From Nemertoderma westbladi (Eukaryota; Animalia; Xenacoelomorpha), in contig JAUCBJ010007402.1 of assembly GCA_032718475.1 (NCBI GenBank), positions 1 through 64,000 on the forward strand: a DNA stretch of 64,000 nucleotides, in the 5' to 3' direction. Position 1 is the stretch's first letter, and each line of letters begins with the position of its first letter. The translations under genes and the position numbers were made by a program. Under the pieces are notes generated by a model. It ran no database searches. It was not told where the DNA came from and was given only the letters and a program-made list of their open reading frames with translations. Shown piece after piece: positions 23,901-43,846 of the stretch.

Positions 23901-24777
23901 TCCCTGTAGGTCTTTCACAACGCTTTCTATTGTAGCATTATGTATTTCATTCCATTCGACTTCTTTGGCAAAGGTTAACACACTATTCAATTCACTATAT
24001 CGAGAGATCTTCTCCCATTTTGTCAAGTGCCCCGGCAACGTAATTTTCTTACCGTTAACGAAAACTTTCACCATGACATTGTTGTCTAAACTGACTAAAG
24101 AACCAGCTTCGCTTTCACCATGCTCTCCGAAAAGATGAACGACATTTTCATTATTTTGGATTAAGTTATAGAATAGCTTGTTTGGTTCAGATAGTTCGCC
24201 CTCATCGAATTGAAATGTGGACACTATTATGTCACTTGACAAAAACTCTCTGATCTCCGCATCTAGTCTTTCACCCTCATTTACAAGTCTTCTCTTCTCT
24301 GCAGTTGATGCAAATGAATTTGAGCTTGCTCCCACATTACCCCGGCACGAAAACGGTGTTGCATCTCTATGAAGGCGCTTTCTTTGCCCTGTTCCAATCA
24401 CATGACTTGGAATGAAATGGTTCTCACAAACTCCCATACTATCAGTTAATGTCACTATACCATCATTTTCGCGTAGTGCCTCTTGCCACAACTTTCTCTT
24501 TTCGACGTTTTTTGGTGGAGCAAAAACAGTTCTCAATGCACTCCGCTGACTCCCACTTTCACAGTTATTGACACTGCAGTGTCTAACCATAATTTCAAAA
24601 TTTCACAACACACAACAAGTATTTAATAAAATATTAAATTATTTTTGTTCTAGAACATAACTCCATTGGCAATTTGTGTAAATCCTTTATGATTTTATTC
24701 TTGAAAACTTCCTACTTGGCCTCTTATTTTTTTGAGGGCAGCTCTGTGTCCAGGCCTGTTATTTTATGAAGGCCCTG
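20964..24777 (-). mobile_element. P-superfamily (THAP, Galileo-like) DNA transposon, apparently intact
   Basis: Perfect 71-bp TIRs (20964-21034, 24707-24777, CAGGGCCTTC...), 7-bp TSD GTACCAC (20957-20963, 24778-24784), single transposase ORF. Confidence 0.95.
21663..24590 (-). CDS. THAP-domain P-element-family transposase (975 aa)
   Basis: THAP C2CH (CSVNNC...W...CENHF...ATP); catalytic-region motifs LQIDE, LILDG, GDPVH, FQNDAIEHVFALFR; C-terminal CxxC...DRGKLTVP. Confidence 0.93.
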   Translation of the reverse strand: MVRHCSVNNCESGSQRSALRTVFAPPKNVEKRKLWQEALRENDGIVTLTDSMGVCENHFIPSHVIGTGQRKRLHRDATPFSCRGNVGASSNSFASTAEKRRLVNEGERLDAEIREFLSSDIIVSTFQFDEGELSEPNKLFYNLIQNNENVVHLFGEHGESEAGSLVSLDNNVMVKVFVNGKKITLPGHLTKWEKISRYSELNSVLTFAKEVEWNEIHNATIESVVKDLQGLSDKVVDEKQSKLFRFCADQIELSCTPPNRRRFGKLADLLCFSVILHAISAAAYRELSELLYFPSERHLRRLVSGIGEAQSYWSSRFSHLRDYDCILQIDEVYVQAKLMYNEGKLFGLPEGPIPIPCENDVCEYLAKTLLVMQVVFLRSKEKEVVMMKPVVNLNTDILKNAIMESLKVLHVCTLNAIALILDGNRTNHSATEAIGGAVIINPFTGRVLFNMGDPVHEIKCFRNNFVNKGLVTFPDPIELIVPPFTKLLTTPTVYIKNILPTTSDWNFNIDDLDNHEANDVDANVEVISTDDDSRGTIFDNTCVFKEKVKDKVSTNTITADWNEITYVHDDESNNIVKLAVKLNHTVVHPNKLQRQSVSRALAIIDVSTIAALTIYGYTSTAKLLLLFAQWWMVMNTRSTNIGVKKNNILQQPLTTKSKLQVEFLNGFYNWLCQLDDGQLLTKDTLKSFKNTTKVILQISHHLLYGERSILYKYILPGRFQNDAIEHVFALFRRMSGCSYLISVYEIICSERKLKLKSLIKLFQSNQCNFNLTLSSFLDQFKGDGSESSLTSEDYDIINTILGNPQVDCLLEEESENDAMVVIYLAGVLAFRIKHEIKCDDCKAELTDNDLTIYLDKSFQYTTMIDRGKLTVPCKWLVLYVSRCLASLKLLMTEASTRNKFLSSKAPRKLLVALFGQLLGMSKCKSGHKMGEGTSLQRRLSNILLNNFRKNVTNESTKRKKQIADDKKLKKLKSVG

Positions 24778-27083
24778 GTACCACCCATGCGTAGGCTTAC
24801 TGTGCTGATTATGGTTTGATTGATTGATTGTTTTTTACACATAATTAAACCTTTTAAAATTCACAATAATACATTTATAAAGATTACGTTACGATATTAG
24901 GCCTACAGTACAAGTAGGCCTAATAACACTAGATATTTAGGAGCACCAATACTGATTTATGTAGATAGTCAACTTATAAAATGTTTATTTACTTAAATAA
25001 AAGGTTCTGGTGTAAGGATAGCCTCATGAGGTATATACCTCGTTTCCATGAGGGTCCTATAATAATTTTCATACTCTAATATTTAAAGCTAGTCAGACTG
25101 TGGTACCTAAGCTATATACTGTTAGGTATATTGCTGTATTGGGGTGGGGTTAGGAATAATCCATTTGTTTTAGCATTGAACTGTTGAATCCCCTTATTTA
25201 TTATAAAACCATTGGAAATATTCGCAAATGCCGCTCCATTACTGTCTGATGTCTGAAACGCTCCCGACAGTCCGATGTATCTGGACCCGAGCAGCCGAGT
25301 TGCTTCAAGAGGTGATTAACGGGGGAATACTACGGAATTGCTTGTTTGTCAGTACGATTCTATTTGGGTATTTACTACACTCAGACACTGGGAATACGGC
25401 GGTCGGTCAGATCGTAATGCGGGCCACTGCCAAGTTCATCATGCCTCACTCCGGTCACCCACCTTGGAGTGCGGTGGGAAGAGTCCCACTTACTGACTTA
25501 CGTCGACGACTGGACGAATCGACGAGGATTGCGATCTGGGTTTAGCGGCGGCCCGGATCCTGGGATCGCCTGGGGGAAATGGTTGAACGTTGGGCAGACG
25601 TTATCGCACTGGATTACGTTCTCTGTGACGCGAAAGTGTGAAGCGAATTCGTTGTCGAATTGGGTCGGAAGCTGCGGGAATTCTACTGTTCTACGGGAGT
25701 AAACCGCAGCGGTCCGGTGACTCTGACTACGGACGGATACTACTGGGATAAGCAGGTATTTCGATCGAGTTTCTCGTATTCTCGATGCTCGAGGCGGATA
25801 GAGAGTTGGTTGTGTTGGGCGGTGTTGTTCAATTCTATCAAACATATTAAATAATTGGTAAAATAATAAAAACACACCAGATAAAGATACTGAGCTTATG
25901 GTAAAGAGATAGGCCGAACTTACAATTTCCAAATAGATTGTTCATATAATAAATATATTTTTGGTATTTGATTTCAAGATAGGGGGGGGGGGGGGGGGGG
26001 GGGGGCTGGACGCAATAAAAATTCATCCCTCTCCAGGGGAAATTGGACGCAAATAACAACAGCTGATTACTCTCAAAAATAAAACTGTAACCTGTTCTAT
26101 TGTGTTTACTTTATTGTTTTGGTTAAAATAACGTGCCACTGTAACCTGCTCCTTTCCCAAAATTTAGAAATTAATATTGAGGCGGGATATTAATTCGCCA
26201 AGATGGGATTTGCGTCCAGTCCCACCCCCCTCCTATCTCTTGATTTCACTAAAAAATAGAATACATTGCATTTTACTGTTATAATTACTGTATTGAATAA
26301 AATAATTAATTGATTGTTTATTATACCATGCTAAGCACGTTGAACTGGAGCTCTAACAATTCCCCACTAGCGGCAGACAGGAACTGTAAAAGTCTCTGTA
26401 GAATTTATAATTAAGCAATGCTCTTAGGTAACTACTACTAAATTTCAGATGAATCTGATCGTTGGTTCTATAATTACAGCTATTTTTACGTTTCTGTTAA
26501 TTCGCCCCCTAGCGGCAGACCGGGGAACTGTAGAAGTCTGTCTGTGTGTAGAATTTCTAAATTTTTTTAAGACTACAAGTGTACCAAGTTTGGTTCCATT
26601 TCATCCATGATTGACCGACTTATTAGCGTTCAAACATTCCTGCCACGAATAAAAGCTGCAGGAACTCGAGCGATAATTAATTTATTTATTATTAAATACT
26701 GTTTCAATTAAATTCTTTACGAAAATCTAGTCATCTTCTTTTAAATATGGACCCTGCATTCATGGAAAATATAATATTTGATAATTCATCAGTCACCAGT
26801 CAGCCTACGCTAATTTCACAGCAAAGTCCTTGTCATGGCCTGTGTGTAGTAGGCCATGGTACCACCCTACTACCGGTACCGGCTGACCGGTGGCAACTAG
26901 CACTTGCACAGCAACAGCCCTACCGGCGATACACAGGTTGAAATTTATGTAGAGTTTGCTCAACAGTACAGATATAAAATAGTTATCTAAATTATATATA
27001 TTACTATTGACAAGTATTGAAATATATACCGTTATTCGTGTTATCAGTATTTGCAACATCTGACATTGAAGAGGTGAGAGAAG

Positions 27084-27930: not shown

Positions 27931-28618
27931 TGGTGCCTGGGCCCTTTGAGTCCTCCTGACCTAATTGTACCGCACATACGGTACCACTGGAAATACGGTA
28001 CATCTACCTGCAGACCTGACTACGTAGGTGCTAATTGAATATTACGCCTGCTGTAATAATGGAATCTAAAAAACACAACGCAATTACTCCCATCAACTGG
28101 CAGACTGGGGATGACGGACCACATTGATTTAACATGTTTTGTACCTATGGATGCCTTGGAATCTAGAAATAGTGCTACTGTTCTAAGCCTACTACCTACA
28201 GATAATGAAATGTTGAATACTTGAATATACATTGAAATGTTAATTAACTTCTAAAGACCGAGGTTAGTTTGCTATCCTACTGCAGTGCACATTGTGTTAA
28301 TGTATATGATAAAATATTATCATACTGCTGAAATTATTCTATATAATTACTCGTTGAATTCTACAATCAATGTATGTACCTTTCTACTGTCTGTTTTCGC
28401 TTCAGAATTGCTTATATTTGCTGATTATCTCCTTTCTGCTATATTTAACTGTTTGATTGAATTGACTGTTGATGATTATTATTAATTGCTTGGCAGCTTG
28501 GTATAATAATGTACAGTGTAAACCGGCCTAACCAAATGAAATATTGGGTTAATTAGGTTTATTATTAATTACATCCCCTGAGCCTACAGGCCTACAAAAC
28601 AAATCCTATGCAATAAGT

Positions 28619-29386
28619 ATGCCTCCAAAACAAGTTGGAATAGATCCAAACAGCTTAATAGCTAAAGTAAAGTTAGAAAGAAAAAATAAACGCACGGCTT
28701 ACACAAAAATATATCAAAATGCAGAGAAATTATTTAATGTGAAAAATGACAATGAAGGTACATATGAGACATTATGTATTTTTCATGAAAGAATGGATAA
28801 TACATTTCAAGAAATGAAGTCATTGGATGGAAAAATACTTGAAATTTTTAGTGATGATGACCAATATGAAGTTGAATCAGAGGCAATAGCTGATCGGGAA
28901 GGAGATGATGCTATTCGTTTAGATGTAGTTAAAGGGCAGATTAATAAGTTTAGGACACTTATAGACAGAGCCAACACTGACAGAAACCAGTCATCAAGGT
29001 CTAGTTCATCTACTGTATCTACATCGAAATTACCAAAAATTGAATTAACAAAATATGATGGCTCACTTACAAAATGGCAAGGTTTTATTGACCAATTTGA
29101 TGCTGAGGTTGGATCCAGGGCTGACCTTACAAAGTCTCAAAAATTTAACTACTTAAAGCCCCTACTTATAGGGGAAGCTGCACAAATAATAGAAGGTTAT
29201 ACTGCTTCAGATGCCAATTATGAAATGGCATTAAAAACACTAGTTGAACGGTTTGGAGATCACAATAAAATTGTAAGAATACTTCATCATAAATTGTTGA
29301 CTTTGGGTCTAACAGACCAATCCCTACACTCACTACGTAAATTTTATGATGAAATTATGGTTCACCTTCGTTCATTAGAAGCACTT
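28619..29386 (+). CDS. BEL/Pao #2 Gag N-terminal 256 aa (interrupted by insertion)
   Basis: KLPKIELTKYDGSLTKWQGFIDQF...QKFNYLK...NYEMALKTLVERFG capsid motif. The listed ORF tail after 29386 reads into the inserted LTR. Confidence 0.92.
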
Positions 29387-31079
29387 TGTTGCCGTTATCC
29401 CTACACCAGGGGGGAAAAACGCCGATGCTGGAGACGTGACTTAACAGACCACCGAGCCCCGGCCAGTCACCGGATATTGATTGTGGGGAGGGAATATTTT
29501 CTGAGATGCAAGTTTGCGGTTGATAAAAAGCTGCATTAGTTGGATATACTCTTTAATGTAACTTCCTATAGTTGAAACCCGTTCAACATCATTGAAACTT
29601 GTTCAACATCATTGAAACTTGTTCAACATCATTGAAACTTGTTCAACATCATTGAAACTTGTTCAACATCATTGAAACTTGATTAAGAATAATTTTGGGC
29701 TTCCCCAAATCAATATACACCAAATATTCACAATAATTATACACGATAATATAAATCCCTACGGTATATTATTTAATAACCCACTGTTCGCTCAGAATTT
29801 TAGCCTACCTAATGTTCCCCAGATTTTCCCTCGGTCCCAGTCTTAGTGCCGTAGTGTCGGTGTCGGTCGACCCTGTCGCGTGTCCGTTCCACCCCTCACG
29901 ATCCCCGAAGGGAACGATCATCGAGAACCAGCATGGCTTGGCTAAGGGTCGGTCCAGTCGGTAAACTCTGTCGCGTATCCGTACCACCCCTCTCGAACCC
30001 CGAAGGGTTCGGTCATCGAGAACCAGTACGGCTTGGCTAGGAGTCTGTCGTGTCGGTGGACCCGTTCGCGTGTCCGTTCCACCCCTCACGAACCCCGAAG
30101 GGTTCGATCATCGAGAACCAGAACGGCTTGGCTAGGGGTCCGTCGTTTCGTCACAGAAACCCAACCACCTAGGCTTTCCGAGTCCCTTTCAGGCTCGTAG
30201 TCGCTTCGGCAGCCGAGAAACTGCTCCGAACAGTTGGTAGGCCAGTAGAGTCTAGTCGAGTCTAGTCCTTTGTCTTTCGACCCCATCGCGTGTCCGTTCC
30301 ACCCCTCACGAACCCCGAAGGGAACGATCATCGAGAACCAGTACGGCTTGGCTAAGGGGTCTGTCGTCGGTTCCCGTCGCAAATCCCAGTACAAGCAGTC
30401 AGCGTTCCGAGTTCTTTTCAGTCTCGTAGTAGCTGCCGTTGACCAGAGACCGCTAAGGGCAGTTCTCGTCAAACCCGTCCTGTGGCCAGCCCTTTCGCAT
30501 GTCCGTCCCACCCCTCGCGAACCCCGAAGGGATCGGTCATCGAGAACCAGTATGGCTTAGGTCAGGGGGCAGTCGTTAGTTGGCCACCCGTTCGCGTGTC
30601 CGCTCCACCCCTCACGAACCCCGAAGGGAACGATCATCGAGAACCAGAACGGCTTGGCTACTAAGGGGCCGTCGGTGCCCGTCGCAAATCCCTGACACAA
30701 GCAGTCAGCGGTCCGAGTTCTTTTCAGTCTCGTAATGGCTGCTGTTGGCCAGGGACCGCTAAGGGCAGTCCTTGTCCTTTAGGCCTGGCGCATTACCAAA
30801 TCCACCCCTACAGGCAGCAGGAAGTTGGCCAGGGCCTAATAGTACTCAGGCTAACCTGAATACTGCTTGCATTTTCCATCCCCCCCTGGCCCTTATAACT
30901 ATGAAATTATTCCCGTACCCTGTAAGTTGCCCCAAAGTTCGCCCATAAATCGCCCCCAGTTTATTGAATGTGCCCAAAACCCATGGTCCCGCACCCAGTA
31001 GTAATATCGGAATAATCAATTTTAAATAAAATACAAAAATATTCAACTCGCGTTATGGAAAGTTGAAATACCGCGAACA
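29387..31079 (-). repeat. BEL/Pao #3 3' LTR (1693 bp): 20-bp x5 tandem repeat and six ~70-bp structured repeats
   Basis: gttcaacatcattgaaactt x5 at 29581-29680; ~70-bp repeats starting 29876, 29971, 30066, 30286, 30495, 30592. Confidence 0.95.
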
Positions 31080-31244
31080 GTCCCCCCCAATGACCTTCGT
31101 GAAGTCTGTCGGTCGATTGAGTTTGCGTAGGTCATTCCCAATATAAAAAACCCAAATTTAATATTGCATAGTTTTTAATTAATTTGGCCTAGAGTTTGTA
31201 TAAAAATAAATGTTCGATAAATGTTCCTGGAATATCCCGATCCA

Positions 31245-32333
31245 CTATTTCTTTCTCTGATACGCCTTTCGTCTCTTCGCCCGTCGACTCTCATCGATCG
31301 CTATGGCTGGTAGAGGAGCGTCAACATCCATCGTGAGTAACGCTTCGGCTTGTCTCCTGGCGGCTCTTCCTTTCGAAGGCATCGGGATCATGTCGGTTCG
31401 TCTTTCCAACTCAGATTTGCGTGCCTCTAGGAACCATTCTCCGTCACCGAACTCCTCTTTATACGAGTATAATCGTCTAATGACTTCAAATGGACCGAAT
31501 AATCCGGCGCTCAGTAGTAGATCCACGTAATGGAAAGGTAGCGTGGCCGACGTGTGGAGGCGTTCCGGGAAGGAGAAATATCCGCACGCCATCTCCTGCG
31601 CGATATTCCGAGCGTTTCTCCGAACCTTGGTCTTTAAATGGCTGTTTGCGTATGTTTCAAACATGACCATATTGCCCATAGCGGTAACGTCTTTGGTTGG
31701 ACATTTGATATAGCAGCGGGGGCTAGAGGAATGTCCGTGGAAACCGCACGTGGTGCAGAGGTTATAAAGGATCGGGCAGACGGAAACGTCGTGGCCCGAT
31801 GTCGCGCAGTATGGGCAATAGAGTATCCCGAGGAGCTGGAGGCAAGAATCGGTAACCCGATTCCTTCTGCCGCGTGGGCACTGCTCCGAGCCGCAGTCGC
31901 CGCATACCTCCAACTGCATCTCTCGACCGGGGAATATCGGAATCGGGACGCCGACGTAGTATTCGAGTCGTCGGTCGCTCTTCGGAATATTCTCGGTGGT
32001 CGGTAGCCCGCGGAATGCTAGGCTTTTGCGTAATAGGTTCTCGCTCCGATAACCTTCTTTGTGTCCCGCTGGTCTCAACTCGGATGACCGTTTCTGGCGG
32101 TGGATCCATTCAGTTTGCTCGGCGTACCAACGGGTTAGTCGCATAGGGTCCTGAGGAACGGCGGGTGTAGTAGCCACCGCTGGTCGGCGAAGAGGTGCCG
32201 GGGTTTTCGACGGAGGGATACCGAGGAGATCGTCGGGGGTCGGCGCGTCGCTGGGGCCCTCCTCGATCAGTATCGCTGCGCGGGTCCGTTGGTGGCTGGT
32301 ACTCGGAATCTCCGACGACCAATCCTTCGCCAC
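31245..32333 (-). CDS. Accessory Cys/His-rich (zinc-knuckle-like) protein, 362 aa; possibly the C-terminal half of the exonuclease-like ORF
   Basis: CGDCGSEQC...C...CPYCATSGHDVSVC...CTTCGFHGHSSSPRC; basic C-terminus RRAKRRKAYQRKK; overlaps the upstream ORF by 224 nt in the +1 frame; listed start is GTG. Confidence 0.75.
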   Translation of the reverse strand: MAKDWSSEIPSTSHQRTRAAILIEEGPSDAPTPDDLLGIPPSKTPAPLRRPAVATTPAVPQDPMRLTRWYAEQTEWIHRQKRSSELRPAGHKEGYRSENLLRKSLAFRGLPTTENIPKSDRRLEYYVGVPIPIFPGREMQLEVCGDCGSEQCPRGRRNRVTDSCLQLLGILYCPYCATSGHDVSVCPILYNLCTTCGFHGHSSSPRCYIKCPTKDVTAMGNMVMFETYANSHLKTKVRRNARNIAQEMACGYFSFPERLHTSATLPFHYVDLLLSAGLFGPFEVIRRLYSYKEEFGDGEWFLEARKSELERRTDMIPMPSKGRAARRQAEALLTMDVDAPLPAIAIDESRRAKRRKAYQRKK

Positions 32334-33846
32334 CCGGGAAAGGATACGGGGATAACCGTTGGCATATGTCGCCGAAGTCGCTCAATGCAGCTGTAGTAGC
32401 CACCTCCCTCGCGGGGCTACCGGAGCCGCGTGGAGTGTAAACGCCTGCTCTCTTCATCGGTTCGGTCGAGGCAACCCGTTTGGCGGCCGGTCCATACGCG
32501 GCCTCCGGCTCTAGTTGTCGCTTCGGGGTGGAGAGTAGAACACCCTCGTTTAGCCATATCTCTTCCCCTTCCGAAGAGATCAGAGGCTCCTCCGCACCGA
32601 GAAGTTCGGTAATCGTAGGGATGTCGTAAGGTCCGCTCTCGTCCCAGGAATCGATAACGGCGGGTGTTTTCGATTCTCCCGGTGTAATGTTCTCGACCGC
32701 TTTAAACGCGTGGTTTATAACCTCGTTCCAGTCGTAGTCGACGAAGGAAAGGGGGACCGCCGTAATAAGGTTATCGAGAGTTTTACAGATAAACTTAGCG
32801 ACGGTGTAGCATTCCATAACGACGTAAACGTAGTTCCGTCGATCGGGATTCTCCCATCTTTGGTGTATCGTCCACTTCCGATCAACGTCCTTCCATCGAC
32901 CCTCTCGCTCGCTCTTTATTTCCAATCCCGGGTATCCACCGTATATTTTATTATAGTCCCGGAATTTCTGAGGTTTGAAGTCGATACCGCCGTTTAGCAC
33001 AGCGAGGTAGCCGATCCCGGATTTCGTCGGTCTCACCTCTTGGAATCCTCGCATGAACTCGGCGAATCGTAACCAGGCTAGTAACGTTTGAGTGTCGATG
33101 CAATGGCTAAGGGCGTTGAGGTCGTCTCGTCGGTTTCTTCCTGTAGGAGCGTTCGCGTAGTCGTTCCGGACGTCCGCCTTGATATCCGACCCGATTTTAA
33201 TGACGTCGAAGTCGAAGAGGATCTTTTGGATTTCCGGAGGCAGCAACCAGATCGCTCCGGCTGCCTGCACTTCCTGTCTGGGTGTCGGGAATATTCGGCA
33301 CACCAGTACCAAACCGTCCAGGGTTCCGAGGACGACGACTAAGGATCGACCGTATTCTTTCGCCCCGTACTTTTCCTGGTAGTCGTCGCGGTTTTGGATA
33401 ATCGATACGCGTTCCTCTCGAAGCGTCGCCGTACACTCCGACAGTTTTCCCCAGTGGGCGAGGTACGTACTCTTGTCGTCGACGAAACTTTGACATCTCG
33501 CCAACGTAATCGCTTTCGAGGTGGGCGTCGCGTTTCCCTCGTTGTCGTAGATCAAACATCGGGATCTGTAGATGCTCTGCCGGAACGTTTCCCAAAACGA
33601 CGAATCGTCCCCTCTGGTTGCCTTTGCGTTCCGAGTTCTTTTCAGTCTCGTACTAGCATCGGCTAACCGGAGGGCTCGTAGATTCTTAGAATCCGGTCCC
33701 TCTCGCCCGGTGAATTTAATGACTCGCACGTTCTCATTTAGCAGGGTGCTCCAATTTGTATCAAAGTCAGGGGATCCAGGTTGCGAATATTCCAGTAGAT
33801 CTATCGTGTTACGTAATTCGCCGATAATTTGGCGATTTGGGTCCAT
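32110..33846 (-). CDS. Accessory protein with WRN/Mut-7/EXD-type DEDDy 3'-5' exonuclease fold, 578 aa
   Basis: VVVLGTLDGLVLVCRI...LPPEIQKILFDFDVIKIGSDIKADV...CIDTQTL...SGIGYLA...RWE...YVVMECY follows the order and spacing of the WRN-exo family signature (LQLA...LP..L..LL.D..I.KVG.....D...vDL...SL..L...W...YAA.DA). Confidence 0.75.
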   Translation of the reverse strand: MDPNRQIIGELRNTIDLLEYSQPGSPDFDTNWSTLLNENVRVIKFTGREGPDSKNLRALRLADASTRLKRTRNAKATRGDDSSFWETFRQSIYRSRCLIYDNEGNATPTSKAITLARCQSFVDDKSTYLAHWGKLSECTATLREERVSIIQNRDDYQEKYGAKEYGRSLVVVLGTLDGLVLVCRIFPTPRQEVQAAGAIWLLPPEIQKILFDFDVIKIGSDIKADVRNDYANAPTGRNRRDDLNALSHCIDTQTLLAWLRFAEFMRGFQEVRPTKSGIGYLAVLNGGIDFKPQKFRDYNKIYGGYPGLEIKSEREGRWKDVDRKWTIHQRWENPDRRNYVYVVMECYTVAKFICKTLDNLITAVPLSFVDYDWNEVINHAFKAVENITPGESKTPAVIDSWDESGPYDIPTITELLGAEEPLISSEGEEIWLNEGVLLSTPKRQLEPEAAYGPAAKRVASTEPMKRAGVYTPRGSGSPAREVATTAALSDFGDICQRLSPYPFPGGEGLVVGDSEYQPPTDPRSDTDRGGPQRRADPRRSPRYPSVENPGTSSPTSGGYYTRRSSGPYATNPLVRRAN

Positions 33847-34398
33847 ATTTACGATTATATCCGTTACAAATTAGATCAGTTAATTATAAGTCCAGAAAGT
33901 CTGAAACTATAGCGATAGCAGAATAATTCAGTTTTTTATTTAATTCAGTTTATTAAATAACATTGCTATATAGACATCTATAATCTTATTGCTAATACAT
34001 TCAGCATTTACAGTTACTATAGCTATACATTAATATCCAACCAGTTTTTTATGACTTTTTTGTCCTTTTCTTTTTTCTAATTCTTTTCTTTAGACTTTTT
34101 TATACCTTTTTTTTGTCTTTTTTCATTTCATTATTATTTCATCTCATTTCATTTATTTCCACATATTTCGACACATTTATTTCCACCATTTATTTCACAT
34201 TTATTTATTTCCACATCATCATTGGGTTTATAGCCCCCCGGCTATCATCATTTGTTATGAGCGCAGCACCAGGGTGCGCATCATTACATTTTCATCAGTA
34301 TACGCGTCATCATTCAGGTTTATAGTAGAGTTGTCTGATCCTTTTCATCGTTTCCAACTATATTCAATCATTTTCTTTGGTTAATCTTTGTCGTGGAA

Positions 34399-34820
34399 GG
34401 GGTGTTACGCGGCAATCTGGGATCTACAGCTGGACTCGTTACACCGCCTACGCCCCAAACTGCGCACGTAACGGACAATGAAGACGCTGGGAGTGAAGTC
34501 ACGTGGATGCACCATGGACCCACCAGAATAACACTCCCAACAACATAAAGCTCAGTCGACGAAGTCATGTGGGATGTGGTTACGCAACATTCTGGGATCT
34601 ACAGCTGGACTCGTTACACCGCCTACGCCCCAAAATCCACGCAACGGTCCCACCAGAATAACGCGACTGAGAAACATAAAACCCTCTATCGTCGAAGTCA
34701 CGTGGATGCACCATGGACCCACCAGAATAACGGGATAGAGGGGGTGTTGCGCGGCAATCCGGGATCTACAGCTGGACTCATTACACCGCCTACGCCCCGA
34801 ACCGCGCACGCAACGGACAA
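34399..34820 (-). repeat. Three ~80-bp hairpin repeats interleaved with a ~38-bp repeat between pol and the accessory ORF
   Basis: gggatctacagctggactcRttacaccgcctacgcccc core at ~34399-34478, 34578-34648, 34741-34820; gaagtcacgtggatgcaccatggacccaccagaataac at ~34495 and ~34694. Confidence 0.9.
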
Positions 34821-35093
34821 CATAACATACTGCGATGAATACAATGAATTCCACTTCAAATCTTTTCCATTTCCAATAATCCAATATCGTAGGTCCTGAT
34901 GACCAAAATCAGGGTAAACAATGCATAAACGACCCTGCGTCAGTCGAAACATCTGCAGGGTGACGCTGGACTCCACATAACACACGAGGAAACACAAATA
35001 CCATTGCGTGGTTACAGTTGGTTTAAGGGGGGTCCATAACTCATTGTCGATAAATCACAGTCAAAAAGAGTTTGTCAACATGATGAGAAGGGT

Positions 35094-38000
35094 TTAAACA
35101 CATTTGTCAGTGTCACCGATGTCTGCAGCAGGATCCGTAGTAGGGAACTTATCACCTCTTGTAGAATCACCACTGTCATTGCCTTCAAGAAGGCACAGCT
35201 TCTGGATGGGGCGTTGGTAGTGGCCCGATTTCGTTCGTATCGTCACAGTCCTCGCAAGTCCGTCTTTGCTTGGGTGTATGGTCACGACCCGCGCCACAGG
35301 CCAGTGAACGCGGTCTTTGAGATCTTCTTTAACTAGTACCATGTCGCCAACTGCGACGTTCCGGTAGGTGTTGTTCCATTTCCTCCTGGTCCGGAGGGTT
35401 ATGAGGTATTCCTGGGCCCAAATTCTCCACCAATGCGCTGCCAACGCTTGGGCCTTTTTCCAGTTTGTATGTTTCGCGATCTCATTGGGATCCGGGAACA
35501 TGGTTTCCGGGAGGAGGTGGGTTTTGGGTCTCCCCAGTAAGTGGTTAGGAGTGAGGGGTTCCAGGTCTGTGGGGTCGTCGCGGATAGGAACAATGGGTCG
35601 GTTGTTCAGGGTAGCCGTGATCTCGCAGAATGTTGTGCGGAGGGTGTCATGGGTTACCCGGGTATCGCCTAGAGCGACGCGCATGGATCGTTTCACTAGG
35701 TCGATCAGTTTCTCCCATACCCCGCTCGTATGGGGTGCTAAGGGGGTCTGGAAGTGCCACTGTATCTGGTGTTCCTTCCAGACTTGGGATGCAGTGTTAT
35801 CGGTAAACCATCCCTCGATCGCCTCTCTAAGTTCTCTTTCTCCTCCCACAAAGTTTGTACCATTATCGGAATACATGTGGCAGCATGTCCCGTTGTTCGC
35901 CACGAACCGACGCAGAGCGTTGATGAATGCGTGTTGTGTCAGATTTACCACGATATCTAGGTAAATTGCCCTAGACCTCAGGCAGGTGAAGATGGCTCCC
36001 CAGCATTTGATGTTGGATCGTCGTTCAATAACCGTGAACGGTCCGAAACAGTCCACTCCGGTGACGTAGAATGGTTGGGAATCCGCTTGTAGACGGGTGG
36101 CTGGTAAGTCGGCCATCTTTTGGGTGATTGGTGGCGCTAGGTAACGTCTGCAGGTGAAGCAACGTTTCAACACTTTCCGGATCAGTGGCTGGATGTGGGT
36201 GATCCAATATCTTTGTCTTATATTAGCTATAATCCAATTCTGTCCTGCGTGGTGGTTGTCCTCGTGACATTGTAGAATTAATAGCTTAGCTAGTGTCGAC
36301 GTTCCGGGCAGAAGCGCCGGGTATTTAACCTCATATTCGACCGGGGCGTTTGCCATCCGGGTATTCAGTCGGATCAGTCCGTCCTCTCCCATCATTGGTC
36401 TCAGTTGGTAGACTGGGCTGTCCGGTTTCAACGTTTTGCCCGCACTAAGTTGTTCCCATTCATCGGGGAAACTTTCTTTCTGGACATATCTAACAATACA
36501 CTTCTCTGCAATAATGAGTTCTTGTATATTCCGTTGAACTATCGGTTTGTTGTTTTTCCACCGTAGGAAGTTGCGAAGGGTTATAACGTGATAGACGAGC
36601 CGTCTCATGGATGAAGTTCGCTCGATCAACCGATGTAAAGACGCCGCTAGTTGGGTGATCGTCGCGACGTTATAGTGCCTGCCCGAGTCCTTTGCAGGCT
36701 CAGTCAGACAACTATAAATTTCCACCGCGTTGCTTCGATGGATTTTACGGATCTCTTTATCGTCCTCGGAGTATTTTCCGCTATCGAGCTCGGGGTCGAA
36801 TCGGGTACTCCAGGTTAATTGTGGCTGCCGTAGGAATTCCGGGCCTGTAAGCCAGAGTTTACTTTTACCGAGTTGTTTTGGGGTGGCGCCTCGGCTTGAT
36901 AAGTCCGCTGGGTTTTCCTTCCCGTTCACGTGATGCCACTGTTCTCGGCCGGTACACTGTTTAATCTCTGTGGCTCGGTTTGCAACAAACGTGGTGTGAC
37001 GCCGTGATGGAGAGTGGAGATAATAGAGAACTATACTCGAATCTACCCAGAAGTGTTGAGATTCTATGGGGATCCGTAGGTTCCGCATGACCATGCGATT
37101 CTGTCTTACTGCCCAAACTGCAGCTTGTAGCTCGAGTCTCGGGATCGTTGCTACGAATTCCCCGGATACTGTCTTTGCTTTGGAGAATAAGAAGCTTGTA
37201 TCGCCGTTTCCATCGTTACTTAGTCTCCGTAGGAAGGTGACTACGCCGATTCCGGTATTCGAAGCATCCGAAAAGGTGTGGAGCTGGAAGATATCGGTGG
37301 GCAATTTATCGAGGAAGAACGGTCTAGGTATCCGCATAAGATGTAGGTGTTCGAGCTGCTCCGTCCATTTTCTCCATTTGACGCTGAGGTATGGGGGGAG
37401 CTCTTCGTCCCATCCCAGTCCTTCTATCCACATTTCCTTAATCAGGTTCATTCGGGCCAAGGTTACTGGAGATATGAAATTTAGTGGGTCGAAGATGGCG
37501 CTTTTTATCGACAAACATCCCCTTTTTGTCATAGGCTTGGGTAGGGGTTTATACTTGAAGATGAATTCGTCTGATTCTATGTCCCATTCAATCCCAAGTA
37601 CACGATGTTCCACATCCTCCGAATACATTTTGTTATTTTCCAGCCGGATGTCCTCCGGAAACTTTTCCATAAGTGTTTTGTCGTGGGATCTGAACTTCAC
37701 GAGCGGAAACCTTCCTTTCTTTAGACATTCTACCATCCCCATTGCCAGCCGATATGCCTCATCCACATTATCCGCGCAGGCGCATCCGTCGTCCACGTAG
37801 AAGCATCGTCGAATTGTTTCTATGACAGTTGGAGGGAACTCGTTTTCGCACATAGTTGCCGTCCTCTTTAGCATGTCACTGCATGCTACCGGCGAGTCCT
37901 TACCGCCGAAGATCCTGACGACCATACGCATTACGTCTACGTCCTTTATCGTGAGTTGGCTAATCTCCTGTTGAGTAAGCGTTTTATCCGTCCATAGGAT

Positions 38001-40931
38001 ACGTAGACAGTCCGAGTCTCTTGGTAACGTACGAACTTGATGAAACATGGCCTTGATGTCACAGGTGAATGCTACCCGGTTTTCCCTGAACCTGATCAAT
38101 ACGCCAATGAGTGTGCTATATATGTTGGGTCCCGTGTAAAGTTGACTGTTTAGGGATTCGCCCTGGTACATAGCGGCAGCATCATTTACCACTCGGATTT
38201 TCCCACCTTTGCGGGCTTCTACTACATAGTGGGTTGGGAGATAATATGTTCTTTCACCACCTTGCAGTTCATTCCGTGGTACCATTTCTGCTAATCCATC
38301 ATCGAGATATCCTTGGATTACGGTATTATATTTCTCCTTTATCTCGGGTTGGTCATTCAGCCGGCGTAGAATCCCTTTAAGTCGCCTAAGTGCCATGCTG
38401 GCGTTGTTTGCCATTGGTTTGTTTGGATCCTTCCATAACATAGGTGAACACCAATGTCCGTCTTTAAACGTGGCCTGGTCGAGAATGTCCATACAATATT
38501 GGTCCTCTTCGGATGGGTTTTCGTCCTTTTCCGCGAACTCCTGGGTCTCCAAATTAAAATATTTCGTCATATCTCGTTGGGTTTTCTCGGTTTCCAGAAA
38601 CAAATCCTCGTCAAGATCTGAAGCTGAGCAATAACCCACAGAGGTTACATTCTCTTTAATCTGACATTTAGGAAGGTAGGTATAGGTGTCCGTAGTTTCC
38701 TCCTTAATGCCGCAGAGTGTCCATCCCATTATTGTTCGTTCAGCATAGAATCCATCATCCTGGTTTATAGATCGAGCGATATCTCCGGTGGGGATGTGTA
38801 GTTCCGGTGTATCAAGTCCAATCAGTAGGGTGATACGGTTCACGTCCAACTGCGGACACCTCAGGTCTACATCGTCTCGGTCTAATTGTATGAGGGGGGC
38901 GTACTCGGCTGATTGTCGGAACCGCACCCGGAGGTCTGTGTGTACCAAGGCGTTCTTGATGGTTAACTTAGCCGTTTCGTAGCCCTTCATCACTCCTTCC
39001 ATCTGGAGTTGTACCTCCCCGGACTCTACCTCTCTGTTATCGGTGATGGTTTGTATGGGCCGTTTACAAGGTTCATATTCTAGGCCGAGTTGCTCGAGGA
39101 AATCCCGGTCGATGATGGTTCCGTCAGACCCGTTATCGAGGAACGCGAGTGTCGTCAAAGATTTGCCGACTCCTTGGATCCTTACTGGGATTACCTTTGC
39201 AAAAACCATGTAGCGGCGATTTATAAGATTAATCGTGGCCGAAATATTGGTTACTTGTGGTGTATCGGTGGAGATCTTAAACGGGTTGGTTTCTCTCCGT
39301 TGGGTTGTCCGGGTTCCTTTGAAGATGTGGTTTGTTTCTCCTCTTCGCCTGGCTTCGATCCGAAAGGGGAGGGTAGTAAAATCGAAGTTCGCGGGGATGT
39401 GGAGGAGCGTGTGATGGCGTTGGTCGTTACAGACAGTACAGCATGATCTTTGGTCGCACTCCCGAACATAGTGACCTGTTCCAAGACACCGGAAGCATCC
39501 TCGGTGTTTCATTATCGCCTCGAAGCGTGGGACGAGTTCGGCGAACTGAAACTTTCTGCAGAATTCCACTTTGTGTTTCTCCCCACAGAAGAGACAGAGC
39601 AGGGAATTTGTGATGCCTTCCCTTTCGGGTGCCCAACTCGCGAGATAACATGCCCATTCCTCGGCGGATGTCGGTTCCTCGTAGTCTTCGTCGTCGGAAT
39701 CCTCGGCCATGGTAATGGCCATCGTACTTACCGGTGGGGGGCGGAATCTCGGTTTCGGAGGGGTTATCTTACTCCTGGAGTTGCTCTCTATTCCGTCCAA
39801 CTTTGCGAGACTTTGTTTTGAAAACATCGAGTCATTCATGGCTTCGGAGATATCGTCCAGGAATGCCGACATTTCAAGGAAGCTAGGATCTCGATCTGGA
39901 TGTCTGCGCCGGAGATCTACACATTTATAAGCCCACTTACTTTGTAGCCATCCGGGGAACTTCTTGGCGATCTGTCGGAGGTTTAGAATGTTGTTCACCT
40001 GGTCCTCCTTATTTAAGGGTTTCAGAGTATAGTAGGCATCCTTCATAGAGTCGGAGAATTCCTGTATGTTCTGTGGGTCCCCTAGTGATCCCGCGTCCTG
40101 TATCAGTCTCTCTAGAGTTTTATTAATTATAGTTCCGGTATTTCCGTATCTTTTATCCAGAGTTTTCCATGCGTCATAGTATGCCTCATGAGAACCTCCT
40201 TCAAAACATGCAATAATTCTGCGTGGTTTGTCACCCAGGTATTGCGATAAATATACCAATTTCTGTGCGTCGGCTATGTCCGTTGATCCGATCTGCGCAA
40301 AGAACCGTTTCTTGAATCTGAGGTAATCAACGGGATCTCCTTCGAAGGTGCGAATCTCCATCTTAGGCATGGCAAGGCGGTTCTCCAACGCCCGGATGAT
40401 GCTGACGTCGTCTGAACTGGAGTGACTCGGAGGGTTATAGTTATTGGCACTCACTCCCATACTTGATGGATCAATAATAGGTGGAGTTTTAATAATGACG
40501 CGGCTATGAGTTTGTGGTGTGGATGTAAATGGGTTGTTAGATCGGGGAGTGGCGTCCCGTTCCGAGTCCCTTTCAGGCTCGTACTTGGGTACACTCGCTG
40601 TCGTGGTGTTGGATGGGAAATAAGGTTCCTCATTATTTAGCATAGCTGGTGGGGGATGGAACACCGGGGCTTGTGCCGATAGCGTAGACTGTTTGGTAGG
40701 CGGGATCTCGGGTTTCGGAGGTTTCGCCGCTGTTGGTGTAAATGACTTTTCTAACTCCGGTACCGGAATTGGTTCATATTCCTGATCTATATCCCTTTCC
40801 CAGTCCTCGTAGAGTTGAATATCTCGTTCTATAAGTGCGGCTTCGTATTCTGCGAGTTTTGCAATATCCGCATTCTTTTTGTGGATGAGAATTGCTTGGG
40901 CCTCGGCGTGTTGTTTACGCATTTCCGCCAT
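35094..40931 (-). CDS. BEL/Pao #3 Gag-Pol (capsid, zinc knuckles, PR, RT, RNase H, IN), 1945 aa
   Basis: FEGDPVDY..F, three CCHC-like knuckles, FLDNGSDGT, CDIKAMFHQV, FYVDD, TFSDAS, WVDS, H-H-CxxC, GVDCFGP, SDNGTNF, WEKLI. Confidence 0.97.
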   Translation of the reverse strand: MAEMRKQHAEAQAILIHKKNADIAKLAEYEAALIERDIQLYEDWERDIDQEYEPIPVPELEKSFTPTAAKPPKPEIPPTKQSTLSAQAPVFHPPPAMLNNEEPYFPSNTTTASVPKYEPERDSERDATPRSNNPFTSTPQTHSRVIIKTPPIIDPSSMGVSANNYNPPSHSSSDDVSIIRALENRLAMPKMEIRTFEGDPVDYLRFKKRFFAQIGSTDIADAQKLVYLSQYLGDKPRRIIACFEGGSHEAYYDAWKTLDKRYGNTGTIINKTLERLIQDAGSLGDPQNIQEFSDSMKDAYYTLKPLNKEDQVNNILNLRQIAKKFPGWLQSKWAYKCVDLRRRHPDRDPSFLEMSAFLDDISEAMNDSMFSKQSLAKLDGIESNSRSKITPPKPRFRPPPVSTMAITMAEDSDDEDYEEPTSAEEWACYLASWAPEREGITNSLLCLFCGEKHKVEFCRKFQFAELVPRFEAIMKHRGCFRCLGTGHYVRECDQRSCCTVCNDQRHHTLLHIPANFDFTTLPFRIEARRRGETNHIFKGTRTTQRRETNPFKISTDTPQVTNISATINLINRRYMVFAKVIPVRIQGVGKSLTTLAFLDNGSDGTIIDRDFLEQLGLEYEPCKRPIQTITDNREVESGEVQLQMEGVMKGYETAKLTIKNALVHTDLRVRFRQSAEYAPLIQLDRDDVDLRCPQLDVNRITLLIGLDTPELHIPTGDIARSINQDDGFYAERTIMGWTLCGIKEETTDTYTYLPKCQIKENVTSVGYCSASDLDEDLFLETEKTQRDMTKYFNLETQEFAEKDENPSEEDQYCMDILDQATFKDGHWCSPMLWKDPNKPMANNASMALRRLKGILRRLNDQPEIKEKYNTVIQGYLDDGLAEMVPRNELQGGERTYYLPTHYVVEARKGGKIRVVNDAAAMYQGESLNSQLYTGPNIYSTLIGVLIRFRENRVAFTCDIKAMFHQVRTLPRDSDCLRILWTDKTLTQQEISQLTIKDVDVMRMVVRIFGGKDSPVACSDMLKRTATMCENEFPPTVIETIRRCFYVDDGCACADNVDEAYRLAMGMVECLKKGRFPLVKFRSHDKTLMEKFPEDIRLENNKMYSEDVEHRVLGIEWDIESDEFIFKYKPLPKPMTKRGCLSIKSAIFDPLNFISPVTLARMNLIKEMWIEGLGWDEELPPYLSVKWRKWTEQLEHLHLMRIPRPFFLDKLPTDIFQLHTFSDASNTGIGVVTFLRRLSNDGNGDTSFLFSKAKTVSGEFVATIPRLELQAAVWAVRQNRMVMRNLRIPIESQHFWVDSSIVLYYLHSPSRRHTTFVANRATEIKQCTGREQWHHVNGKENPADLSSRGATPKQLGKSKLWLTGPEFLRQPQLTWSTRFDPELDSGKYSEDDKEIRKIHRSNAVEIYSCLTEPAKDSGRHYNVATITQLAASLHRLIERTSSMRRLVYHVITLRNFLRWKNNKPIVQRNIQELIIAEKCIVRYVQKESFPDEWEQLSAGKTLKPDSPVYQLRPMMGEDGLIRLNTRMANAPVEYEVKYPALLPGTSTLAKLLILQCHEDNHHAGQNWIIANIRQRYWITHIQPLIRKVLKRCFTCRRYLAPPITQKMADLPATRLQADSQPFYVTGVDCFGPFTVIERRSNIKCWGAIFTCLRSRAIYLDIVVNLTQHAFINALRRFVANNGTCCHMYSDNGTNFVGGERELREAIEGWFTDNTASQVWKEHQIQWHFQTPLAPHTSGVWEKLIDLVKRSMRVALGDTRVTHDTLRTTFCEITATLNNRPIVPIRDDPTDLEPLTPNHLLGRPKTHLLPETMFPDPNEIAKHTNWKKAQALAAHWWRIWAQEYLITLRTRRKWNNTYRNVAVGDMVLVKEDLKDRVHWPVARVVTIHPSKDGLARTVTIRTKSGHYQRPIQKLCLLEGNDSGDSTRGDKFPTTDPAADIGDTDKCV

Positions 40932-41875
40932 TTACGTTGTTCGATCTCTCGTTTGGCCTCTCGTCCGCGTTGTTCGGCCTCCTGTTTGCGTTGTTCGGCC
41001 TGTCGTTCGTCCTCCCGTCTATGTTGTTCGGCCTCCTGTTTGCGTTGTTCGGCCTGCCGTTCGGCCTCTCGTCTATGTTGTTCGGCCTCTCGTCTATGTT
41101 GTTCGGCCTGCCGTTCGGCCTCTCGTCTATGTTGTTCGGCCTCTCGTCCACGTTGTTCGGCCTGTCGTTCGGCCTCTCGTCTATGTTGTTCGGCCTCCTG
41201 TTCGTGTTGTTCGGCCTGCCGTTCGGCCGCTTGTTCGGCCTCTCGCTTTTGTGTTTCGGCGGCTAATACATCTTGCTCGGCTTGCAGTTGAATATACTCA
41301 TCTTCCATCCGAGCTTTGAGGGCTAATGCCTTCCGTTCTCGCAGTTGGTCTCGGAGTGGCGGCGCCCGAGAACTGCGCGCCGAGCCGGATATCTCGCTCC
41401 TAGCGCTGGAGTGCTGATTTCTAGCGGACCCCGTTCTCTTTCGATGTACTGCTGTCCTGATGCTGGAGGATCGTACTGATTCCGCGTCAGCCCTCTTGTA
41501 ATACTGTTCCTCATAGCCTCTCACAAGGCTGAGGGTCCTCCGGTGTTGTTTGCGGAACCCATCTAGATGTACAACGTGTTCTTCCAACTTGGGGTAGTTT
41601 TCCTGATCGGTGGGGGGAACGAGCTCTTGGTACGCCTGTATCATTCTTTCGTACCGCTGTAGGATATTTCGGATACTTTGAAGCTGAGTTTGTACCTCAT
41701 TGAGGGGGGTTTTGACTCCCTTGAGTTGTTTCTCCATCCGTTGATACGCTCGGGTTACTCCGCCTTTAAGAGCCCCTAACCGACGGGTCATGTTCTTGAC
41801 GTTTGGTACCTCGTCGGCTTCCGAGTCTGTGTGGTGATCCATCTCGTCGGTATCGGATACGTTATTTGTTGTCAT
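40829..41875 (-). CDS. BEL/Pao #3 Gag N-terminal coiled-coil region, separated from the main ORF by a 1-nt frameshift near 40930
   Basis: RRLGALKGGVTRA N-terminal helix typical of BEL Gag; EAERQAEQHRR repeats (40960-41245); one extra A in CGT AAA (A)TG would fuse it to 35094-40931. Confidence 0.85.
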   Translation of the reverse strand: MTTNNVSDTDEMDHHTDSEADEVPNVKNMTRRLGALKGGVTRAYQRMEKQLKGVKTPLNEVQTQLQSIRNILQRYERMIQAYQELVPPTDQENYPKLEEHVVHLDGFRKQHRRTLSLVRGYEEQYYKRADAESVRSSSIRTAVHRKRTGSARNQHSSARSEISGSARSSRAPPLRDQLRERKALALKARMEDEYIQLQAEQDVLAAETQKREAEQAAERQAEQHEQEAEQHRREAERQAEQRGREAEQHRREAERQAEQHRREAEQHRREAERQAEQRKQEAEQHRREDERQAEQRKQEAEQRGREAKREIEQRKWRKCVNNTPRPKQFSSTKRMRILQNSQNTKPHL

Positions 41876-42063
41876 TGTAACGCCTCGTCGATGGCTAGAT
41901 ACGCGATGTCGTAAAACAGTTCCTCGTAGGTATTGTACTCAGCTTGGACCACCCGAACAGTAATCCTGAATCGTCCAACGTTCGTTCCTTGTACCTCAAC
42001 TTCGACGTGCCAGATTCCTGGCTCAACTTGAATTATATCAATGGGTGTGATCGATACTTCCAT
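41872..42063 (-). CDS. Small upstream ORF (63 aa) overlapping the gag start as ATGA
   Basis: ATG start, globular-looking beta/alpha pattern, stop codon overlaps the gag ATG (41872-41875). Confidence 0.5.
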   Translation of the reverse strand: MEVSITPIDIIQVEPGIWHVEVEVQGTNVGRFRITVRVVQAEYNTYEELFYDIAYLAIDEALQ

Positions 42064-42355
42064 TCCCTGTTAACAACTCTCCAAATATGTGATCTGCCGA
42101 CTACGAGTTGGTTAGATCGAGTTTGTTGATGAATTAAACCACGACTTTGTCTCAACTCAAATACCAGAGTTTCCTCGTAGTGGGTGCTGGCAAGCACGTA
42201 GAGAGTTTTTGAAGAGTATTGAAGGATTCTCAACTTCCACCAGTTGAAGTTGACAGTAATTATCCTTAATCTTGACACCCTGTCAAAATTAACCGCATTA
42301 ATTATTCTTAATTTTGACACCCTGTCAAAATTAACCATATAATTATTCTTAATTT

Positions 42356-43841
42356 TGTTGCCGTTATCCCTACACCAGGGGGGAAAAACGCCGATGCTGG
42401 AGACGTGACTTAACAGACCACCGAGCCCCGGCCAGTCACCGGATATTGATTGTGGGGAGGGAATATTTTCTGCGATGCAAGTTTGCGGTTGATAAAAAGC
42501 TGCATTAGTTGGATATACTCTTTAATGTAACTTCCTATAGTTGAAACCCGTTCAACATCATTGAAACTTGTTCAACATCATTGAAACTTGTTCAACATCA
42601 TTGAAACTTGTTCAACATCATTGAAACTTGTTCAACATCATTGAAACTTGATTAAGAATAATTTTGGGCTTCCCCAAATCAATATACACCAAATATTCAC
42701 AATAATTATACACGATAATATAAATCCCTACGGTATATTATTTAATAACCCACTGTTCGCTCAGAATTTTAGCCTACCTAATGTTCCCCAGATTTTCCCT
42801 CGGTCCCAGTCTTAGTGCCATAGTGTCGGTGTCGGTCGACCCTGTCGCGTGTCCGTTCCACCCCTCACGATCCCCGAAGGGAACGATCATCGAGAACCAG
42901 CACGGCTTGGCTAAGGGTCGGTCCAGTCGGTAGACTCTGTCGCGTATCCGTACCACCCCTCTCGAACCCCGAAGGGTTCGGTCATCGAGAACCAGTACGG
43001 CTTGGCTAGGAGTCTGTCGTGTCGGTGGACCCGTTCGCGTGTCCGTTCCACCCCTCACGAACCCCGAAGGGTTCGATCATCGAGAACCAGAACGGCTTGG
43101 CTAGGGGTCCGTCGTTTCGTCACAGAAACCCAACCACCTAGGCTTTCCGAGTCCCTTTCAGGCTCGTAGTCGCTTCGGCAGCCGAGAAACTGCTCCGAAC
43201 AGTCGGTAGGCCAGTAGAGTCTAGTCGAGTCTAGTCCTTTGTCTTTCGACCCCATCGCGTGTCCGTTCCACCCCTCGCGAACCCCGAAGGGAACGATCAT
43301 CGAGAACCAGTACGGCTTAGGTCAGGGGGCAGTCGTTAGTTGGCCACCCGTTCGCGTGTCCGCTCCACCCCTCACGAACCCCGAAGGGAACGATCATCGA
43401 GAACCAGAACGGCTTGGCTACTAAGGGGCCGTCGGTGCCCGTCGCAAATCCCTGACACAAGCAGTCAGCGGTCCGAGTTCTTTTCAGTCTCGTAATGGCT
43501 GCTGATGGCCAGGGACCGCTAAGGGCAGTCCTTGTCCTTTAGGCCTGGCGCATTACCAAATCCACCCCTACAGGCAGCAGGAAGTTGGCCAGGGCCTAAT
43601 AGTACTCAGGCTAACCTGAATACTGCTTGCATTTTCCATCCCCCCCCCTGGCCCTTATAACTATGAAATTATTCCCGTACCCTGTAAGTTGCCCCAAAGT
43701 TCGCCCATAAATCGCCCCCAGTTTATTGAATGTGCCCAAAACCCATGGTCCCGCACCCAGTAGTAATATCGGAATAATCAATTTTAAATAAAATACAAAA
43801 ATATTCAACTCGCGTTATGGAAAGTTGAAATACCGCGAACA
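42356..43841 (-). repeat. BEL/Pao #3 5' LTR (1486 bp; five structured repeats)
   Basis: Colinear with 29387-31079 except that repeats 4 and 5 are fused into one hybrid (~43255-43320). Confidence 0.95.
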
Positions 43842-43846
43842 CACTT

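Follow-up and report, generated by a model that had tools for sequence, protein, structure and literature searches.

A BEL/Pao retrotransposon of Nemertoderma westbladi with a predicted exonuclease-fold and zinc-knuckle gene in the env position and repeated predicted stem-loops

DEDDy exonuclease genes located downstream of pol were described in 2017 as the third open reading frame (ORF), ORF3, of the bdelloid Juno1/2 and Vesta2/5 long terminal repeat (LTR) elements and of Terminons, with the invariant residues intact (PMC5408684). In the part of this article that was available, the resequenced ORF3s (env-like and GDSL-like) showed no clear departure from neutrality, no activity was shown, and a comparison with EXD1 and Maelstrom was raised. 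Further articles either repeat the bdelloid report or extend it to a DEDDh nuclease of KolobokD DNA transposons (PMC6431247, PMC6338049, PMC9587614), and for Belpaoviridae the third genes listed are env-like only (PMC8742986). The reason why exonuclease-fold genes occupy the env position of LTR retrotransposons has been a standing question since the bdelloid report. It is considered here for a stretch of 64,000 nucleotides from Nemertoderma westbladi (contig JAUCBJ010007402.1, positions 1 to 64,000 of the forward strand; hereafter the window), in which a BEL/Pao retrotransposon carries, between pol and its 3' LTR, an accessory gene with a predicted exonuclease-like domain and zinc knuckles.

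The element runs on the minus strand from 43841 to 29387 (14,455 bp) and is assigned to BEL/Pao (Belpaoviridae) by its LTRs, its Gag box and the order of its pol domains. A first-pass annotation of the window had taken the exonuclease cargo to be undescribed in such elements, a novelty that was overstated, since exonuclease-fold cargo in the env position is already known and DEDDy ORF3s downstream of pol have been published for bdelloid LTR elements (PMC5408684, in its available part). What was not found in print within the searched literature is the combination of features of this locus, namely the BEL/Pao host, the knuckle fusion, the loss of ExoI and the repeated hairpin. No exonuclease-knuckle gene in BEL/Pao is reported in that literature, outside which lie subscription journals, supplements, Repbase, Dfam and GyDB, so that a prior annotation is possible; the available text of PMC3118150 does not contain the word "nuclease", and those of PMC9094657 and PMC3985635 hold nothing on such a gene. 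Our preferred and still tentative reading is that the gene product is a soluble RNA-binding adaptor, made of a dead exonuclease fold and knuckles, which would act on RNA of the element itself, with the hairpin as the probable site.

The accessory gene comprises the following features, with coordinates given in the window:

32110..33846, minus strand: ORF-A, 578 aa from ATG, likely the 5' part of the accessory gene
31245..32381, minus strand: ORF-B, 378 codons when counted between stop codons, probably the 3' part of the accessory gene
32797..33459, minus strand: predicted DEDDy-type exonuclease-like domain, about residues 130-350 of ORF-A
31713..31904, minus strand: zinc-knuckle cluster, with one degenerate knuckle, one CX2CX4HX4C and one CX2CX4HX5C

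Both frames lie on the sense strand of the element, between pol and the 3' LTR, and overlap by 272 nt. Two long frames of 578 and 362 aa had been recognized there at first; their position and the 578 aa hold, while the 362 aa are obtained only from a GTG start, the first ATG of ORF-B being codon 80. The two frames are likely the pieces of a single gene (about 870 aa) that is interrupted near 32,320 in the window copy, because length differences, a frame switch of silent sites and the homolog P0004 all point to a continuous frame. Inside the overlap, the length differs from that of the window for a depth of 7,705 out of 11,713 in read set X1 (13 contigs) and of 7,405 out of 10,712 in read set X4 (5 contigs). 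Silent differences fall in frame A upstream of the overlap (15/19) and in frame B downstream of it (5/6), with 0/4 in frame A and 2/4 in frame B inside. P0004, a distant homolog that ranks first for ORF-A (E 2e-6) in a set of 1.84 billion representatives, aligns to ORF-B as well (31% over 134 aa, pairwise E 8e-11) and thus holds both halves in a single chain of 648 aa. Read set X2 weighs against a broken single gene, with no listed length difference (0/81.6) and a bridging contig with a single gap of unreported position. From these data we infer a single reading frame in most copies of the family; two independent genes were rejected, and the fusion to the CCHC-rich frame that had been suspected is upheld by the P0004 chain and by the length differences in two read sets.

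A hydropathy scan revealed no signal-peptide or membrane character in either half, in agreement with the first-pass annotation. The best 19-residue hydropathy is only 2.08, at ORF-A residues 168-186, a hydrophobic stretch that is common to the soluble homologs and that a low-confidence model reads as two beta strands. An env identity was rejected, as neither a signal peptide nor a transmembrane (TM) anchor was found. The protein would be expressed from a spliced or internally started RNA, and the candidate splice acceptor TTTCAG pointed out earlier is present, as a predicted site, at 33906-33901 in the spacer that follows pol. No RNA data set was listed as containing this stretch, and one run (X5), RNA by guess only, gives thin cover of 15 of 30 bins; neither result carries weight on expression either way.

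The differences among copies support purifying selection on the accessory gene, because silent differences are in excess. Among the 29 differences inside the gene, taken from the best-supported 40 of 360, 22 are silent against an expected fraction of 0.29, calculated with a 4:1 transition weight (binomial p 2e-7). The corresponding N/S ratio of 0.13 is a rough value, with no pol control, and not a formal ratio of nonsynonymous to synonymous rates (dN/dS). The constraint anticipated at first is thus borne out by this count, against which it weighs that the 29 differences were chosen by support within 40 of 360 rows. In 3 DNA runs, each of a different study, contigs that are from <90% to >99% alike extend over all 30 bins of 31080-35200, which places the accessory gene in a diversified multi-copy family. 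In X2, the accessory gene has a summed depth several times below that of the spacer and of the end of pol, and 1,159 nt of the gene are bypassed by a joint; copies without the full accessory gene may exist, contig depth being a poor measure.

The C-terminal half contains, by its motifs and profile matches, nucleocapsid-type CCHC knuckles. P0004 carries three CCHC knuckles, and a two-sequence knuckle profile matches HIV NCp7 (E 3e-5), with a weak match to Air2. In the Atlas of protein clusters, the best match of the knuckle half (0.87) is DUF8363, of fungal CCHC type, which is a lead only. Comparison of the knuckles with the element's own Gag box (P 0.014) gave no evidence of duplication.

The N-terminal half very probably has a remote DEDDy/PF01612-type (DnaQ-like) fold. 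The DEDDy ancestry proposed by the first-pass annotation is supported, on sequence grounds, by Atlas clusters and by a chain of profile alignments through homologs. In the Atlas, 24 of 30 matches are PF01612 clusters (best 0.92; the top three are unnamed). With hhalign, the window protein aligns to three homologs (probability 99). These homologs in turn align over 164 colinear columns to a set of 30 bacterial PF01612 domains (E 8e-6, probability 84), and ExoI, ExoII and the terminal W..L...Q..Y...D/E motif fall in register. A profile of four sequences, including the window row, scores 35.8, compared to 11.8 when reversed and to at most 22.7 in 40 block shuffles. Several observations weigh against this assignment. 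The window sequence alone fails to align to the bacterial PF01612 profile (probability 0.3), the exonuclease part of ORF-A has no significant match in Pfam or NCBIfam, the best named Atlas match shares 159 features, fewer than the 170 typical within one family, and P0004 itself reaches PF01612 only at E 0.2. AlphaFold models, with a predicted local distance difference test (pLDDT) score of 32 from the single sequence and 39 from four sequences, bring no structural confirmation. Nothing significant was found for ORF-A among PDB sequences; Foldseek with the low-pLDDT models gave no match under E 0.001, which excludes nothing, and VIA-align with the low-pLDDT model reached a best Z of 6.3 over N-terminal helices only, DnaQ folds not being listed.

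The only three homologs found (P0004, P0005 and P0006) are unnamed metagenome proteins and ENA singletons, which constitute, as judged from their motifs, an undescribed family with a complete-looking DEDDy site that is missed by Pfam. A word-based search with the single protein returned no homolog, and word-based searches with alignments returned only P0004, a weak blank given that one such search missed P0005 and P0006. Pattern scans for related loci gave 0/145 and 0/435 candidates in metagenome contigs and 0/34 in viral contigs, and tblastn of P0004 in plasmids produced one chance match only.

At the ExoI position (33408-33391), where the three homologs read SIDVE, TVDVE and SFDTE (DxE in 3/3), the window protein has SIIQN at residues 148-152 and no DxE in either register. 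The ExoII aspartate is kept as D225 (KIGSDIKAD, 33198-33172), and ExoIII, the register of which is shifted by a small indel in the alignment, is YxxxE (YVVME, residues 341-345, within 32835-32806) and not Y-x3-D. The first-pass annotation was correct on the missing ExoI pair and on the kept ExoII aspartate; its degenerate ExoIII is abandoned and rejected as a dead motif, because YxxxE also occurs in two of the three homologs that keep ExoI (YIYCE and YVYNE). Two-metal catalysis requires both ExoI carboxylates. With this pair missing, the exonuclease domain of the accessory protein is likely catalytically dead, its relatives being complete-looking.

The second component of the preferred reading is a predicted stem-loop found in several parts of the element:

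33621..33661, minus strand: predicted RNA stem-loop, ORF-A copy
40552..40592, minus strand: predicted RNA stem-loop, gag copy
36673..36713, minus strand: predicted RNA stem-loop, pol variant copy, with a GCAA loop and a different outer stem
30168..30208, minus strand: predicted RNA stem-loop, 3' LTR copy a, with a 5' LTR twin at 43137-43177
30397..30437, minus strand: predicted RNA stem-loop, 3' LTR copy b, without a 5' LTR twin
30703..30743, minus strand: predicted RNA stem-loop, 3' LTR copy c, with a 5' LTR twin at 43463-43503

Its 19-nt core has eight occurrences in the window (0.07 expected), all within the element and on its sense strand; the 3' LTR contributes three, the 5' LTR two, and gag, pol and ORF-A one each. 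The gag and pol copies share one codon frame over the core and the ORF-A copy uses another, so that protein coding fails to explain it. All six folded copies yield one predicted structure, a hairpin with a GNRA cap and a bulge on its 3' side, the loop being conserved as GAAA or GCAA, and the two changes of the pol copy leave a wobble pair and the GNRA character of the loop in place. The internal loop presumably resembles the bulged-G (loop E) motif. Folding is better than z -2.5 in four of the six copies, three pairs of the outer helix are changed on both sides, and covariation is 0.26 compared to 0.14 in shuffled alignments (0/500). No Rfam match was found at E up to 1 over 29300-43900, and a covariance model built from the copies detected no ninth copy in the window. 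The LTR copies are probably located in U3, a placement by which they would stand in the 3' end of transcripts. Against the hairpin and its proposed role, it must be considered that in two of the six copies the predicted fold is not more stable than in shuffled sequences (z about -1.4), that the number of pairs with double change is matched by 55/500 shuffles, that covariation comes from 7 distinct, related rows from which the structure itself was derived, and that the only link between the protein and the hairpin is their presence inside the same element.

According to the preferred explanation, the BEL/Pao family would carry one selected accessory gene in place of env. Its product, a dead DEDDy domain followed by a long linker and nucleocapsid-type knuckles, would be made from a spliced RNA (through the acceptor at 33901) or from an internal start, and would bind RNA of the element, for which the repeated stem-loop is the most likely site; this binding might protect, export or package the RNA. 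A more specific proposal is drawn by analogy with Rev and its response element and with Egalitarian and the I-factor signal, except that the adaptor would be carried by the element. This self-encoded two-part system, in which the dead DEDDy-knuckle protein would recognise the eight bulged GNRA hairpins of LTRs and coding sequence and thereby serve RNA export, localisation or shielding, is unlikely in this full form. Within such a system, the ExoI-intact homologs would be active ancestors of a wider and so far undescribed family of exonuclease-knuckle mobile accessory genes.

The first of the rival explanations, also unlikely, is an anti-silencing function, in which the protein, itself inactive, would mimic host proteins of small-RNA trimming or of the PIWI-interacting RNA (piRNA) pathway (Nibbler/Mut-7, EXD1) and soak up their RNAs or partners, its target being the host pathway and not a cis element. 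The predicted fold class is the same as that of these factors, the family is multi-copy and recently active, and EXD1 and Maelstrom are presented as inactive DEDD derivatives in piRNA biogenesis (PMC5408684, in its available part). However, the closest relatives found are the three unnamed proteins and not host piRNA factors, and the gene is under purifying selection, with no arms-race change in the listed rows.

It may also be that the accessory gene is real and the motif unrelated to it, being a U3 element of the DNA (an enhancer or a host-factor site) or a packaging signal for Gag, spread by template switching. This possibility is ranked second among the rivals and is improbable as well. 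Over 24-27 nt, the cores of the LTR copies show no difference from those of gag or ORF-A, five of the eight copies belong to the LTRs, where they precede a TATA-like box and an ATTAAA and thus probably lie in U3, and Gag has its own triple Cys-His box; the strand bias, the GNRA loop and the double changes of the outer helix nevertheless suit an RNA over a DNA site, and the binder is left unspecified.

Activity of the domain as a 3'-5' exonuclease that trims the ends of the element's RNA or cDNA, through a rearranged site with D155 or E158 in the place of ExoI, is less plausible still. In the other register, that of MAFFT and global hhalign, D155 of a D155-Y-Q sequence is placed under the ExoI aspartate after a five-residue insertion, with Gln for Glu and E158 nearby, an arrangement that counts against a dead domain. 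The ExoII aspartate and YxxxE are kept, all three homologs look catalytically complete, and end trimming has also been proposed for the bdelloid ORF3s. Against activity, no register gives a DxE, the predicted first strand is formed by residues 148-151 (SIIQ) in a low-confidence model, and a diverged X1 contig (depth 26), read by hand, lacks 33 nt in frame over the acidic loop and has no DxE either. Finally, a captured host gene fragment, carried as a functionless passenger, would agree with the breaks of the window copy in the accessory gene and in gag and with the deletion joints inside the accessory gene, but is very improbable given the 22 silent differences out of 29 and the coverage of 30/30 bins in the three DNA runs by contigs of such varied likeness.

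The remainder of the element is organized as follows:

42356..43841, minus strand: 5' LTR, 1,486 bp, TG...CA ends
29387..31079, minus strand: 3' LTR, 1,693 bp, TG...CA ends
29382..29386: target-site duplication, 5 bp, with the second copy at 43842-43846
40829..41875, minus strand: N-terminal part of gag in its own frame, with coiled-coil-like repeats; break near 40,930
35094..40931, minus strand: gag-pol frame, 1,945 codons, with the stop at 35094
33847..35093, minus strand: non-coding spacer, 1.25 kb, with three related repeats at 34396-34850, an A-rich tract and six AATAAA
31082..31088, minus strand: likely polypurine tract, a short G run directly before the 3' LTR

The element is young, as first proposed, the LTR pair being near-identical with 7 mismatches over 1,486 aligned bases (about 0.5%), one 2-bp indel and one indel of 209 bp, the latter present in the 3' LTR, absent from the 5' LTR and containing one hairpin copy. 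A TATA-like box is found at about LTR position 1,120-1,135 and ATTAAA at 1,316. The gag-pol order is DUF1759, triple Cys-His box, protease, reverse transcriptase (YVDD), Peptidase_A17/RNase H, integrase and DUF5641, with Pfam-type matches of E 3e-37, 3e-14 and 5e-29 to Peptidase_A17, DUF1759 and DUF5641; the 1,945-codon frame also matches protease and integrase zinc-finger domains, and a DAS motif is present. The Gag box reads CX2CX3HX4C, CX2CX4HX4C and CX2CX4HHX3H, and such a triple Cys-His box, with related hallmarks, defines BEL/Pao in the available part of PMC554778. As gag is split over two frames near 40,930, the copy as assembled is not intact, owing to mutation or assembly error.

Several other observations concern the non-coding parts of this element. 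The three spacer repeats fold no better than shuffles, and the six AATAAA (34157-34209 and 33940-33954, minus strand) are maybe internal polyadenylation signals or reflect composition only. No obvious tRNA primer site was seen directly after the 5' LTR, host tRNAs not having been compared; a 42-bp unit with an internal palindrome, in 2.5 copies, is located at 42253-42357, where the primer-binding site is expected. Each LTR contains a 95-bp unit three times (29860-30150 and 42829-43119), one unit of which folds as a long hairpin (z -2.5), and a 20-bp unit in 5.5 copies (29572-29681 and 42541-42650). A leader frame of 65 codons (42069-41872, minus strand) ends over the gag ATG and is a possible upstream ORF.

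The window is rich in other repeats. A second, plus-strand BEL/Pao-like element (28553-29386 and 43842-48832) is split by the 14,455-bp insertion and has a DUF1759 gag, a pol frame of 1,667 codons and frames that are otherwise open-looking. At 20962-24779, a THAP-domain, P-element-like transposase frame of 979 codons (24602-21663, minus strand) is flanked by 76-bp inverted repeats that are 99% complementary, and is likely a young DNA transposon. Nested inverted repeats at 49274-58809, together with minisatellite units of 22/30 bp at 49.9-50.3, 52.4-52.6 and 58.2-58.4 kb, are likely foldback elements or of the miniature inverted-repeat transposable element type; GC-rich tandem arrays of 30-bp and 27-bp units are found at 15292-16251 and 51085-51474. 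ARAGORN predicted one tRNA-Cys with an odd anticodon (61338-61428, minus strand), which is maybe a tRNA-derived repeat.

Bdelloid Juno and Vesta elements are gypsy-type. Within BEL-like elements, Frame, Cutfield and Poulter reportedly described in 2001 an exonuclease-like domain in the pol of some nematode Cer elements, which is said to be located between RNase H and integrase, with no separate 3' gene and without knuckles. Like the bdelloid ORF3s, as far as their description in the available part of PMC5408684 extends, the accessory gene follows pol, takes the env position, is predicted to be of DEDDy exonuclease type and lacks TM segments. A Cys-His-Cys motif is present in two of the bdelloid ORF3s, and their catalytic residues are intact (DEED), while the window protein has no ExoI pair. 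The bdelloid elements, compared by description only, are not described as BEL/Pao in that text, which mentions neither tandem knuckles nor a repeated hairpin. The gag-pol order and its hallmarks, with a third gene between pol and the 3' LTR, are shared with Tas, Cer7, Cer13 and the Atlas element (PMC8742986; PMC554778 and PMC9094657 in their available parts); the third gene of these elements encodes a glycoprotein, whereas the product is here predicted to be soluble. The sizes quoted for Belpaoviridae are 4.2-10 kb with LTRs of 0.2-1.2 kb, compared to 14.5 kb and 1.5-1.7 kb here.

Rev and its response element (RRE) illustrate how an element-encoded accessory protein handles genomic RNA. A further precedent is CERV of Cer1, an accessory protein made from a spliced RNA and acting on the genomic RNA of its own element (PMC10309623, in its available part). 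CERV and Rev/RRE serve as a working model only and homology is not implied, the function of the present gene being inferred. The family under study offers a multi-copy case that combines an excess of silent differences, an active site that looks dead, fusion to an RNA-binding domain and a candidate target RNA, and P0004, with its complete site, is a natural control that makes the alternative "nuclease or RNA adaptor" directly testable.

With Egalitarian and EXD1, the likeness lies in a DEDDy fold used for RNA binding for which catalysis is not needed. The first-pass annotation had implied that Egalitarian is an inactive nuclease, which does not hold by sequence: in the available part of a recent account, Egalitarian keeps all DEDDy residues, its stem-loop binding is independent of them, and it binds bulged stem-loops, one of which is in the I factor retrotransposon (10.1101/2025.08.03.668247). 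Sequence searches gave no direct match of the accessory protein to Egalitarian or EXD1, and these two are host genes, whereas the accessory gene is element-borne. If the hairpin is its target, this family would represent a retrotransposon bringing its own Egalitarian-like adaptor.

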